Part shown: piece after piece, positions 1,988 through 4,933 of the stretch
Numbering within the stretch: position 1 is the first letter of the stretch
How the letters are laid out: each line of letters starts with the position of its first letter
DNA from: Staphylococcus phage LY01
Sequence record: OR836606.1
DNA length: 64,000 bases
Strand: one strand, 5' to 3'
The notes under the pieces: model-generated
What the model was told of the DNA's origin: nothing
The model's database searches: none
What the model saw: only the letters and a program-made list of their open reading frames with translations
Position numbers and translations under genes: made by a program

Positions 1988-2326
1988 ATGCCATATTTTG
2001 TTTTAGATCCTCGTTCTTACATGGTAATTTATCATGCAGGACTTGTTGTTAAAGGTACTATCACTTTAGATGAAGTTACTGAAATAATGGGATTAAGAAA
2101 ATACGTTATTGAAGTTTTAGAAGAAATGGGTTATAATTTCGAATCAGGTAAAATCGAAGAAACTGAAGTTTTAGAAGAAATTGATCCTATTGAAGCGGAA
2201 CATATGGTTGATGAAGCTGTAGAAGATTCAGAAGTTCAAGGGATCGGACGAGCTACAGAAGTAGACCCTCAAGAAGAAGACCTTGAAAATCCTTCATCAG
2301 CTCAAGGCGGAACTTTGCCGCATTAG
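1988..2326 (+). CDS. hypothetical acidic protein
   Basis: ATG at 1988 has AAAAGGAG 11 nt upstream. The track start at 1940 is a non-ATG codon. The stop is immediately followed by the repeat element. Confidence 0.55.
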   Translation: MPYFVLDPRSYMVIYHAGLVVKGTITLDEVTEIMGLRKYVIEVLEEMGYNFESGKIEETEVLEEIDPIEAEHMVDEAVEDSEVQGIGRATEVDPQEEDLENPSSAQGGTLPH

Positions 2327-2329
2327 TTT

Positions 2330-2617
2330 TAATAACGTTAAATAACATGACAATTATTAAGTTACAATAACCAAGTAACTTAAATCACAAGGGGAGGGCT
2401 GAGCCCTTAGACATATAATAGTGTCAACATGGTTATCTGATGTGAAGCGTTTATATGACTCATATATATATAAGAAGATTATAAATGAATTGATCTAAGC
2501 TAATGTATCTTAGTACAGAAACCGAAAAATCCAGTTTAAAACTGCTACAACAATTAAGTTAATTGATTTTAATTATATTGTTGTAAAATGTTTTAAACGC
2601 TATGAGATTTTACAGCT
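2330..2617 (+). mobile_element. IStron-derived miniature element, copy 1 (lacks ribozyme core and tnpB; keeps the RE/omegaRNA-like scaffold)
   Basis: About 290 bp non-coding repeat, about 90% identical to copy 2 at 4527-4808. Its 3' ~170 bp (ATGGTT(A/C)TCTGATGTGAAGC...TTATGAGATTTT) is near-identical to the reverse complement of 53616-53790, the segment immediately 3' of tnpB. Flanked by imperfect duplications of the upstream gene's 3' end (GGAACTTTGCC / GGAACTTTACC). Confidence 0.6.
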
Positions 2618-2898
2618 GGAACTTTACCTAATCAGTAATTCTTATCAACGTTAATTAAATAAAGAAAATAGAACATATTTATATGAAAGTTATTTACATA
2701 AATATCTTTCATACAATTTCTTTGTTCTTGTCTATCTTTATTCTTTTTTCTTTTAATTTTGGCAAAGTCTTCAAAAAGTCCCTAACATTCTTAATTGAGT
2801 GTTAGGGACTTTATTTTAACCCAGAAATTTGTAAAAAGCATCAATTCTATTAAAGAAACAAAGTTTTATAATAAAAAATAGGATGTGAAAAATAAATT

Positions 2899-3396
2899 AT
2901 GAAGGATGATAATAATAAAAACAATAATAGAGAAGATAATTTAAGTGTTGAAGAAGCAAATAGTTTAGTTATTAGATTCTATTATTTTCTTAAGCAGTTT
3001 AAATATTATATAACTCCTATTTTCTTATCTGTTTATTCTTTAGTTTATGGCTTCCAATTTGTTTTTCGAACAAGAGAAGCTTATAGAACATCAGATATTT
3101 ATGTAGCCATTTCCCATTTTATGGACTTAAGAACCTATGGTTTATTTTTAATTATTGGCGGATTATCCATATCAGCTTCACTATTCTTAGATAATTTTAT
3201 GACTAAACCTTTAATGACTATAGGTGCGTTTATTAACTTCGCTCTATTTTTAATATATGCTATTATATCTATGGATATTGCAGGTATGCAATCAACTATA
3301 ATTTTAAAAATTTTCATCTCTTTTTTAAATTTCTTCTTTGCAGTATTTACAATTCTTGAAATGAGAACGGAATCTATTATAAATGGAAGAAAATAA
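2899..3396 (+). CDS. membrane protein (about 4 predicted TM helices)
   Basis: ORF with AGGATG-type RBS context and several long hydrophobic segments. Confidence 0.55.
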   Translation: MKDDNNKNNNREDNLSVEEANSLVIRFYYFLKQFKYYITPIFLSVYSLVYGFQFVFRTREAYRTSDIYVAISHFMDLRTYGLFLIIGGLSISASLFLDNFMTKPLMTIGAFINFALFLIYAIISMDIAGMQSTIILKIFISFLNFFFAVFTILEMRTESIINGRK

Positions 3397-3940
3397 TAGA
3401 AGATTGTATGAAAATAATAGATCCATAACTGAATTAGAATTACTAAAGTCAAATAATTCATTGAAAGAAGAAATTGAGGAGAAATTTGATAAAAAAATAG
3501 ATGAAGTTAAATCCGAGAGTCGAAAAATGAGTAGCACTTTAGTACGTGTAGAAGTATTACTTGAGAATATGGGTAAAAACACCGAAGAAATTAGAAAAGA
3601 AATGAAAGAAGATAGAGAAAATAGAAAAATTGAAGAAGAAGAAAGAAAAAGAAGACATTATGAATTAGAGTCACAGATACATTCTGTTAAACAGGAATTA
3701 AATCAAAATGTTGAACAAGTTGAAAGAAAAATAACTAGTGACATACAAGATTTAAGATTAGGTTTAGACAGTAAACTTAATATAGAAGACTTTGAACTTG
3801 AGTTTAAAAAAATTGAAGAAAGTTCTAATGATGAAAAAGATAGTAAAACTTTTAAAAGAAATTTATTTGTCAATGTAGTATCTTTAATATTGGCTCCTTC
3901 AGTAATCTTAGATATAATTAGAAGAATATTTGGAGGATAG
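3383..3940 (+). CDS. coiled-coil protein with C-terminal TM anchor
   Basis: K/E-rich heptad sequence ending in a hydrophobic tail (LFVNVVSLILAPSVILDII). Confidence 0.55.
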   Translation: MEENNRRLYENNRSITELELLKSNNSLKEEIEEKFDKKIDEVKSESRKMSSTLVRVEVLLENMGKNTEEIRKEMKEDRENRKIEEEERKRRHYELESQIHSVKQELNQNVEQVERKITSDIQDLRLGLDSKLNIEDFELEFKKIEESSNDEKDSKTFKRNLFVNVVSLILAPSVILDIIRRIFGG

Positions 3941-3976
3941 ATTTAAATATTTATTTTGATAAAAAGGAGAAATGTT

Positions 3977-4513
3977 AAATTGAAAAAAAATTTAAAAATT
4001 GGTAAAGATAAATATATTAATGTATTACTTAGATTTAAAAATAAAGCGTGGACAGCAGCTTTATTAATTCAATTAGTCAACGTAACTATTTTCTTAATTC
4101 GTGCTTTTGGTGGAGAAGTTTCTGGTGATACTGAAACTAATATTTTAAGTATCGTACAAGTTTTAGCAGGTGTCTTATCTAGTTTAGTTGGTCGTTTTGT
4201 AGATAGTACAACTGAAGGTTTAGCTGACTCTGAACGTAACTTAGTTAAAAGTAGTCCTACTACAAATAGTGAAAAATCCCTTCAAGCAATGGACTATGAC
4301 GGTAAAATTCTCCCTCCAGTGAAGCCTTTTTTGGAGCAAGAGAGCAACCAAGAAACTACAAACTTACCAAAGGGTCTAGAAACTTTCGATAATGAATATT
4401 TAGAACATCAAGTTTTTGTGGAAGATGATGAAGGATTAATTGAATCAGTTGTTAGAGCTGATGCTAACTACAATCCTGAAATTTTAGGTGGAGGATCCGG
4501 CGGTGATCTTTAA
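3977..4513 (+). CDS. small 2-TM membrane protein (holin-like candidate)
   Basis: TTG at 3977 sits 8 nt after AAAGGAG, and the nearby upstream ATG hits a stop after 3 codons. Two hydrophobic helices then an acidic tail. The stop is followed by repeat copy 2. Confidence 0.5.
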   Translation, partial: KLKKNLKIGKDKYINVLLRFKNKAWTAALLIQLVNVTIFLIRAFGGEVSGDTETNILSIVQVLAGVLSSLVGRFVDSTTEGLADSERNLVKSSPTTNSEKSLQAMDYDGKILPPVKPFLEQESNQETTNLPKGLETFDNEYLEHQVFVEDDEGLIESVVRADANYNPEILGGGSGGDL

Positions 4514-4526
4514 CGGCAATATTTTT

Positions 4527-4808
4527 ATTAACGTTAAATAACATAACAATTATTAAGTTATAATAACCAAGTAACTTAAATCATAAGGGCGAGCTGAGTC
4601 CTTAGGCGCATAATAGTGTCAACATGGTTCTCTGATGTGAAGCATTTATAAAGATCTTTCTATTAAATTAATAGGAATAACTTTATAAATGAATTGATCT
4701 AAGCTAATGTATCTTAGTACAGAAACCGAAAAATCCAGTTTAAAACTGCTACACAATTTTTAATTATATTGTTGTAAAATGTTTTAAACATTATGAGATT
4801 TTACAGCT
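4527..4808 (+). mobile_element. IStron-derived miniature element, copy 2
   Basis: Same repeat as 2330-2617, identical over the omegaRNA-like part to the tnpB 3' flank. Both flanks carry GGAGGATC(C/T)G..GATC, an imperfect duplication of the 3' end of the preceding gene. Confidence 0.6.
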
Positions 4809-4933
4809 GGAGGATCTGCTGAAGATCAATCAAATTAATATATTTTACGGTAACATTCATTAAATTGAATGTTACCGTTTATTTTATAAAAAATTTTAAT
4901 ATACATATAACGTTATTATTATAAATATACACT

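Follow-up and report, generated by a model that had tools for sequence, protein, structure and literature searches.

IStrons of the IS607 type ('group B'), such as CboIStron of Clostridium botulinum and BcISt1 of Bacillus cereus, consist of a 5′ group-I-type ribozyme, a tnpB gene and a 3′ omegaRNA that extends to the right boundary; they insert after a G-rich motif, carry a 2-nucleotide (nt) core at both junctions, and have a 5′ exon that ends in G. Surveys state that degenerating IStrons never give up splicing (PMC4227781), and the BcISt1 variants of emetic B. cereus that have no open reading frames (ORFs), which were lost by one ancestral deletion, retain a ribozyme and continue to splice (Tourasse et al. 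2014, PMC4227781). Protein-less IS200/IS605 elements whose omegaRNAs need TnpB in trans have been described in Geobacillus stearothermophilus as palindrome-associated transposable elements (PATEs) (Meers et al., PMC10055086). Here we analyzed a 64,000-nt stretch of Staphylococcus phage LY01 (OR836606.1; hereafter the window), which holds an IStron of the same build and boundaries in a gyrA-like gene, together with two copies of a mini element that is the reverse of the BcISt1 variants: the omegaRNA scaffold is kept and the ribozyme lost. We establish its anatomy and insertion polarity, the conservation of its scaffold, the motif at its target sites and the presence of perfect targets in related phages, and consider it probable (roughly 0.6) that the mini element is a non-splicing, non-autonomous IStron derivative whose omegaRNA would direct the resident TnpB, in trans, to alleles without the insertion in co-infecting phages.

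Like the PATEs, the mini element is non-autonomous and ORF-less, and keeps its ends and an omegaRNA that would depend on a TnpB encoded elsewhere. However, PATEs are Y1-transposase IS605 elements with palindromic ends and TTGAT-type target-adjacent motifs (TAMs) and are mostly intergenic, whereas the mini element comes from an intron-bearing IS607-like family and lies in coding sequence, where an in-register mimic of the target rebuilds the gene end. It differs from the IS607-type IStrons in having neither ribozyme core nor tnpB, in its core (TG, not GG) and in its host, a phage. A further likeness is to intronless homing by SegF and MobE of phage T4, in which self and non-self are told apart by target differences and the incoming DNA brings a functional, nuclease-resistant gene segment. 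Another analogy is with integrative elements that insert site-specifically and bring along a new 3′ end for the gene they enter. Unlike in either case, recognition by the mini element would be RNA-guided, via TnpB in trans, and no endonuclease or integrase gene is present. The literature searched described no ribozyme-less IStron derivative in coding sequence with an in-register target mimic. Protein-less omegaRNA carriers (the IS605 PATEs) and ORF-less IStrons with a ribozyme were known already, and the ribozyme-less mini element with a mimic is, to our knowledge, new.

LY01 is a jumbo phage, and the window's TnpB, its holin and the product of the first host gene are each 100% identical to an LY01 protein. 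The nearest sequenced relatives of LY01 are the phages MarsHill, Madawaska, S6, PALS_2 and UFV_DC4 (~92% identity), and SA1, AH12, PB50 and Machias are farther removed. Both mini loci were compared in seven related phages, and the site in the first host gene (gene 1) also in three SA1-like metagenomic contigs. The mini elements were missing at the orthologous sites of 7/7 phages at both loci, the gene-1 site was empty in all three contigs, and among all protein-database homologues the altered holin tail that accompanies copy 2 occurs in LY01 only. The empty sites set the insertion of copy 1 at 2310–2618 (309 nt), where the core reads CG at the left junction and TG at the right one (Table 1). 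The initial annotation of this DNA, made from the letters alone, had proposed a non-coding repeat at 2330–2617; the repeat is real and contains no ORF of at least 40 amino acids (aa) according to the ORF list, and the insertion is slightly wider than proposed. Since the native terminator of gene 1 lies downstream of the element, copy 1 is in the 3′ untranslated region (UTR) of the transcript in sense orientation. Both copies are sense-oriented and lie between a new stop codon and the native terminator, which is, by analogy, the position relative to the upstream ORF that omegaRNAs occupy after tnpB.

Table 1. Coordinates of the mini elements, their host genes and the full IStron in the LY01 window.
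Feature	Position	Strand	Remarks
Host gene 1, present form	1988..2326	+	112 aa, function not assigned; from ORF list; LY01 protein WRM43334.1; homologues in 9 phages
Left junction GGCG, copy 1	2306..2309	+	Empty site GGTG in MarsHill and S6, GGCG in PALS_2; presumed TAM + 2-nt core
Upstream in-register imperfect target copy, copy 1	2310..2327	+	GAACTTTGCCGCATTAGT vs GAACTTTACCTAATCAGT; rebuilds G-T-L-P motif, new stop
Left-end segment common to both copies	2328..2390	+	~65 nt, about 91% identical to copy 2; repeated WTAAC motifs
tnpB remnant, last ~20 nt with stop	2391..2410	+	GGGGAGGGCTGAGCCCTTAG vs GGGGAAGGTTAATCCCTAG; conserved hairpin at omegaRNA 5′ edge
omegaRNA scaffold, copy 1	2411..2616	+	Multi-stem; ends ...GAGATTTT-ACAGC
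Right-junction core dinucleotide TG	2617..2618	+	Occurs once in empty sites
Displaced original gene-1 end	2619..2638	+	GAACTTTACCTAATCAGTAA; GAACTTTACCTAATCAG+TAA; identical to MarsHill (16/16), there after AAGGTG
Native intrinsic terminator of gene 1	2778..2817	+	From sequence; terminator annotated at homologous MarsHill position
Mini copy 2	4491..4809	+	In last codons of holin gene (3980-4513)
Target mimic, copy 2	4491-4508	+	GAGGATCCGGCGGTGATC
New stop, copy 2	4511-4513	+	
Scaffold end + ACAGC, copy 2	4795-4807	+	
Right TG, copy 2	4808-4809	+	
Displaced original holin end	4810..4838	+	GAGGATCTGCTGAAGATCAATCAAATTAA; identical to MarsHill, there after TAGGTG
Full IStron splitting gyrA-like gene	53608..55609	-	~2.0 kb; TG at both junctions; empty site in MarsHill and SA1
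IStron omegaRNA	about 53610-53850	-	Right end of element
tnpB of IStron	53824-55029	-	Pfam OrfB_IS605 and Cas12f TNB domains; ISDra2 TnpB structures match, E=1e-27
Structured group-I-like RNA	about 55050-55607	-	~550 nt, 5′ of tnpB
Segment complementary to omegaRNA 3′ end	55099..55129	-	31-nt inverted repeat with 53620-53650, between ribozyme and tnpB

When 2300–2700 was compared with the window by BLAST, 2320–2620 matched 4516–4811 (84.8% over 310 columns, E=2.5e-96) and 2429–2611 matched the reverse complement of 53616–53807 (85.5% over 193 columns, E=1e-56). The window has 24% G+C, and these matches, the second of them to the region directly 3′ of tnpB, are far beyond AT-rich chance; a profile from five family members found exactly three copies in the window. 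The 3′ part, initially called 'almost identical' to the segment downstream of tnpB, is homologous to it, with ~85% identity overall; only the core blocks of the scaffold reach 95–100% against the resident IStron (19–20/20, 58/60 and 27/30 identical). The tnpB-tail block shares 15–20/35 positions (43–57%) with that IStron, so the minis did not arise from it by recent deletion. Their initial description as a deletion derivative resembling a miniature inverted-repeat transposable element (MITE) is supported with this amendment. On the left of the deletion ~70–80 nt are kept; the internal guide sequence and the ribozyme core after the left end are deleted. As initially stated, there is no ribozyme core and no tnpB beyond the last ~20 nt: BLAST found no ribozyme or tnpB homology reaching into the mini and none to 55050–55530. 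With the group I ribozyme core absent and tnpB so reduced, the mini is not an IStron proper; having no coding capacity, two copies with the same deletion and empty orthologous sites, it resembles in these respects a non-autonomous MITE or PATE. In silico removal of 2310–2618 would restore the native tail of gene 1, and the mini holds no ribozyme or internal guide sequence for such removal.

The right end of the mini is clearly homologous to that of the IStron except in the last 5–6 nt (ACAGC vs GTTAAC). For the left end, whose first ~70 nt had been said to resemble weakly the 5′ end of the IStron, the resemblance is weak and was significant in copy 2 (Smith-Waterman score 34 vs 20.3 ± 3.6 in shuffles; 2/300 shuffles as high) and was not significant in copy 1 by the same comparison. 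The left-end profile does not match the IStron, and left ends diverge fast even between IStrons that are 89% identical. Because the two copies share the deletion junction, across which they are colinear, and an ACAGC terminus found in no full element, we conclude that a single deletion was followed by spread to a second site. The minis most likely derive from an IS607-type ('group B'-like) IStron family of Staphylococcus jumbo phages.

The scaffold alignment (A3) contains 61 pairs, with 96.3% of cells paired. Thirteen pairs are changed on both sides, compared with 3.8 ± 1.6 in shuffles (0/500 as high) and 3 or fewer in slid registers, the structure being derived from the same alignment as was scored; the fold z-score is −3.9. 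The predicted stems run from the 3′ end of tnpB to the right boundary and are followed by a presumed flank-derived guide, which is the arrangement of a TnpB omegaRNA scaffold, and at both loci the scaffold abuts the native target. CboIStron cleaves only if its right end is almost complete, activity being lost once at least 174 nt are removed (PMC13521648); ~230 nt of the right end are kept in the minis. Rfam gave no match at the gathering threshold across the whole window and none at E≤1 in 53500–55700 and 2200–4900, and no Rfam family covers the omegaRNA of the mini or the IStron.

Near-copies of the gene end on both flanks, already noticed in the initial annotation, are present in exact register at both loci. 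By comparison with the empty sites, the downstream copy, which is identical to MarsHill, is the original and the upstream one is new; of the two origins first suggested, a long target duplication and a replacement gene end, the comparison favors the latter. The new copy encodes the last six codons of gene 1, including the stop TAG at 2324–2326. The left 18-mer agrees with the target at 14/18 positions in copy 1 (binomial P ~9e-5) and 13/18 in copy 2 (P ~5e-4), in register 0 only, and the first 7–8 nt are exact in both. Across the window, 95 of 63,600 18-mer pairs 309 nt apart (0.15%) reach 13/18; cross-comparison of the 18-mers between the two copies gives 5–6/18, and the splicing-type relatives, which have no mimic, give 5/18 (gyrA IStron), 7/18 (a metagenomic homologue, L006) and ~7/18 (L021, an IStron in an RNase H gene, counted by eye). 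This direct repeat of the target is at variance with the duplication-free boundaries of IS607 elements, with which the site motif and the common TG described below agree.

The tail motifs conserved in all relatives, GG[TSI]LP in gene 1 and GGGS in the holin, are both kept, and the codon changes within them are all synonymous (GGT to GGC, TTA to TTG and CCT to CCG in copy 1; TCT to TCC in copy 2). Past the motifs, variable residues are changed and an in-frame stop follows in both copies: the gene-1 protein ends in ...GGTLPH vs native ...GGTLPNQ, and the holin in ...GGGSGGDL vs native ...GGGSAEDQSN. We read the upstream copy as a putative functional replacement gene end for an element unable to splice. 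A native origin of the upstream gene-1 tail from an SA1-like parent was ruled out, as the 60 nt that adjoin the insertion on its left resemble MarsHill and not SA1 (though a switch between the two lineages is close by). An engineered linker in copy 2 (GGATCC/GGSGG) was also ruled out, the sequence being one substitution from native GGATCT. Similarities that would make the mini left end a duplicate of ~45 nt from the gene-1 tail and UTR, or place gene-1 flank (GGCGG..ATCTTTA) in copy 2, were borderline (shuffle P ~0.01–0.03, many comparisons, 76% AT) and are not claimed.

The insertion sites of the family read ATGGTG in gyrA and in the RNase H gene of L021, AAGGTG at mini copy 1, TAGGTG at mini copy 2 and AATGTG in phage Machias. 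At these five sites (G/T)GTG precedes the insertion and TG is common to both junctions, and the scaffolds end in (A/G)CTG. A similar difference at position −3 between scaffold end and TAM is found in CboIStron (TCGG vs TGGG; 10.1101/2023.11.20.567912), the LY01 family having CTG vs GTG. Since ACAGC+TG is common to both minis and missing from the empty sites, it belongs to the element, and 2619 (GAACTTTACC) is most likely the first guide position; the start initially given, CAGCTGG, was ~7 nt out of register. The presumed guide of copy 1 is GAACTTTACCTAATCAG, and that of copy 2 is GAGGATCTGCTGAAGATCAATCAAATTAA. Candidate targets in the uninterrupted alleles are GGTG-GAACTTTACCTAATCAG in gene 1 and GGTG-GAGGATCTGCTGAAGATC in the holin gene, and MarsHill has perfect 16/16 targets for both guides behind GGTG (AAGGTG and TAGGTG, respectively). 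The targets of S6 and PALS_2 have 1–2 mismatches, and the gene-1 site of PALS_2 has GGCG; such motif and target changes would weaken the LY01 guides and could reflect drift or escape. LY01's own perfect sites follow CAGCTG, which is not a TAM, and its upstream copies, GGCG-GAACTTTGCCG... in copy 1 (4 mismatches/16) and GGTG-GAGGATCCGGCGG... in copy 2 (5/16), would be expected to escape cutting, in copy 1 also through the GGCG motif. Polymorphisms within the targets include A to T at target position 3 (S6, PALS_2) and A to G at position 13 of the holin target. An SA1-like empty gene-1 site in ERR13865573 carries GGAG in place of GGTG.

The resident IStron separates two parts of the gyrA-like gene on the minus strand, 55600–58362 (which also holds an intein) and 52796–53617. 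The uninterrupted site in MarsHill and SA1 is GATGGTG followed by ATATACCG, and the LY01 site reads GATGG[TG]TTTGTTAAC...GAGATTTTGTTAAC[TG]ATATACCG; the insertion is clean, with a 2-nt TG that is not assignable to one side. The gyrA ORF was restored in silico when the exons were joined with TG counted once (checked against the empty site), and exon joining likewise restored the RNase H (L021) and L006 ORFs, whose junction sequences were read by eye. The resident TnpB has the motifs GVDLG, LEDL and DRDxNAAxN together with a zinc finger, and by these RuvC and zinc-finger motifs looks intact. The RNA 5′ of tnpB shows 25 compensatory pairs relative to L006 (69% identical) and contains classical Q/R/S-like strings, read by eye, and a core of ~50 nt (55275–55326; query positions 875–926) that is 90% identical to an intron of the Escherichia phage vB_EcoM_TH18 DNA polymerase gene (L016 1380–1654), which RF00028 detects at 91 bits. 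These three lines of evidence support its being a ribozyme. Unlike the ribozymes of IS607-type IStrons, it is missed by Rfam RF00028, even at E≤1 (searched in 53500–55700).

Between the ribozyme and tnpB, the segment complementary to the 3′ end of the omegaRNA forms a 31-nt inverted repeat that is also present in the Machias-type, L021 and L022 copies. The resulting helix would probably compete with omegaRNA folding and bring the 3′ splice site to the ribozyme; by analogy with the IS607-type IStrons, in which a helix of this kind competes with omegaRNA folding, it likely underlies the competition between splicing and guide-RNA formation reported for CboIStron. The segment is missing from the minis, and therefore nothing in them would oppose folding of the scaffold. 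Further IStrons, 89–96% identical to that of LY01, occur in the RNase H gene (L021 7600–9627; junctions AATGG[TG]...GTTAAC[TG]GCAAAT) and in another large gene (L022–L025), all in sequencing-run assemblies (L021–L025: SRR25936516; ERR138658xx/ERR138655xx). Since IStrons occupy several different genes, the family is moving actively among Staphylococcus-type jumbo phages.

From these features we infer the transcription and processing of the mini RNA, its loading onto TnpB, the identity of the TAM, cleavage and homing, along the following lines. An IStron would have lost its ribozyme and tnpB, so that beside the complete omegaRNA scaffold only a short left end and ~20 nt from the 3′ end of tnpB stayed. 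The mini sits in sense after GGTG, six codons before the end of a late gene and upstream of its terminator; splicing being impossible, the host gene would be kept by the in-register 18-nt target copy and its new stop. Co-transcribed with the late host gene as part of the 3′ UTR, the RNA would be processed to an omegaRNA with the displaced gene end as guide, and would load in trans onto the TnpB that the gyrA IStron encodes. In relatives that infect the same cell, MarsHill for example, TnpB could then cut the allele without the insertion (GGTG + target), and either the element would be copied by recombination, through homing with flank co-conversion, or the competitor would be damaged. For the decoy role named in the initial annotation, the analysis gave support in neither direction. 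The window is a mosaic, in which 1–2200 is ~90% identical to SA1 and <50% to MarsHill and the sequence from ~2250 on is ~92% MarsHill-like, with the switch <100 nt from the left edge of mini copy 1; directly left of copy 2 (~4300–4500), MarsHill identity falls to 77–84%. Both features fit homing with flank co-conversion and are suggestive of it: they may stem from co-conversion tied to break repair, or from coincidence.

Several observations weigh against programming of TnpB by the minis, and part of them also feed the alternatives discussed below. Outside Staphylococcus, the closest phage TnpB (Listeria phage LPJP1) adjoins a resolvase-domain TnpA, which is consistent with the IS607 type; tblastn with this TnpA, confined to the window, found no match there. 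This is a further difference from the IS607-type IStrons, and the window thus offers no TnpA for the move of the mini to a second site. The inferred TAM (G/T)GTG rests on five sites. Exact and degenerate scans for the omegaRNA core and the left end in IMG/VR, GTDB genomes and JGI metagenomes found no mini in other collections, the sole match of the degenerate patterns being the metagenomic IStron already known. In the phage collection, BLAST in distant mode had Machias as its sole match, and a locus search of IMG/VR by tblastn with TnpB gave no match. Two mini copies in one genome are too few to judge selection on them properly. The last 5–6 nt of the scaffold differ from those of every full element (ACAGC vs GT(T)AAC), the first hairpin is shortened in copy 1 and the third in copy 2, and these changes might impair scaffold function. 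Over one block, copy 2 agrees with the resident IStron at 49/49 positions, and gene conversion could be another source of the conserved core. Finally, IS607/IS605 transposition makes no target duplication and so would not by itself account for the 18-nt mimic.

This last point leads to an alternative that we regard as possible, on balance unlikely, namely that the flank copies are a mechanical by-product (a target duplication, a microhomology repair scar or homeologous recombination) and not a selected gene end. TnpB and Cas12 cut at the TAM-distal end of the target. Given this geometry, the TAM-proximal ~18 nt might have been kept on the left end of a TnpB break and have acquired escape mutations afterwards; microhomology-mediated repair is another possibility. 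The exactness of the first 7–8 nt in both copies and the end of similarity at ~18 nt, about the length of a TnpB guide, fit a scar of this kind, and the lineage switch close to copy 1 points the same way. Copy 2 also admits a reading as a 7-nt duplication plus foreign CGGCGGTG plus left end, as what follows the second GGTG of this copy can be aligned to the left end of the IStron. However, known IS605/IS607 transposition and allelic homing leave no duplication, and synonymous changes in the motifs, a changed variable tail and an in-frame stop in both copies would be hard to obtain from a scar alone. A scar origin and later selection of the gene end are not mutually exclusive.

We judge it rather improbable that the minis are inert relics, that is, decaying IStron leftovers tolerated at gene ends with RNAs unused by TnpB, their core conserved through recent origin or gene conversion. 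The hairpin deletions in both copies, the deviant terminus, the 49/49 block and the restriction of the minis to one genome would all be expected of such relics. Against this, divergence is uneven, the core being far better conserved than the adjoining tnpB tail, and the stems are kept; the length differences fall in hairpin tips that also vary among full elements (Machias, L006); and the guide regions are untouched and match the relatives perfectly. Independent insertion of two full IStrons, each then losing ribozyme and tnpB by its own deletion, is very improbable: full elements of the family do insert into many different genes, but the two copies agree in deletion junction, colinearity and a terminus seen in no full element. 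That the repeat is a conserved 3′ UTR, terminator or regulatory RNA resembling the tnpB-downstream region through AT-rich low complexity, as its position directly after stop codons and the absence of an Rfam match might suggest and as the initial annotation had proposed to check, is excluded by the empty sites in the seven relatives and three contigs, by a match at E=1e-56 that includes GC-containing conserved blocks and covarying stems, and by native terminators lying further downstream, and can be dismissed.

Programming of the resident TnpB by orphan omegaRNAs, which we favor over these alternatives, bears on how IStrons are thought to persist: they are held always to keep splicing, and here the ribozyme is lost, the guide-RNA module kept and the gene end rebuilt. 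If the orphan omegaRNAs are active, one phage TnpB would be multiplexed in trans with guides against the alleles of competing phages, TnpB homing would extend from transposon maintenance to phage-against-phage competition, and single-guide TnpB systems would have a concrete model for moving toward separate guide loci. Further predictions are a (G/T)GTG TAM for this TnpB and, as a rule, a left end that bears a target copy with mismatches, which might ease strand invasion once the target is cut on its TAM-distal side. More tentatively still, LY01 might carry a dispersed three-guide TnpB system, with one nuclease gene in the gyrA IStron and two orphan guide modules in late-gene 3′ UTRs paired with recoded, resistant gene ends. 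Were this doubtful extension true, related jumbo phages would in co-infection face a gene drive or a weapon of exclusion that is guided by RNA, and the system would be a natural intermediate between a nuclease with one guide in cis and a CRISPR-like arrangement with several guides in trans; gene-end replacement would then be an alternative to self-splicing for harmless insertion into coding sequence.

Among the relatives, Machias carries a 5′-truncated copy in a lipoprotein-like gene, with the native site AATG[TG]GATTCC. This ribozyme-less tnpB and omegaRNA copy (L004 2470–3948) replaces 375 nt of the gene, which is intact in PB50 (L014 1071–1445); only its right junction, AATG[TG]GATTCC, is a normal boundary, and the left one looks like a secondary deletion. 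A GGTG upstream of the Machias tnpB was ruled out as a TAM, being the ribosome-binding site of tnpB and homologous to GAGGTG in LY01. The gyrA-like gene of LY01 (52796–58362, minus strand) bears two selfish insertions, an N-terminal intein with a LAGLIDADG domain (Pfam Intein_splicing, LAGLIDADG_3, Hint) and the IStron, which has the topoisomerase domain on one side and the C-terminal beta-propeller domain on the other. A second, unrelated tnpB at 62344–63483 on the minus strand corresponds to the LY01 'mobile element protein' P0012 and shares 37% aa identity with the IStron TnpB, and a third LY01 tnpB (P0009) is encoded outside the window.

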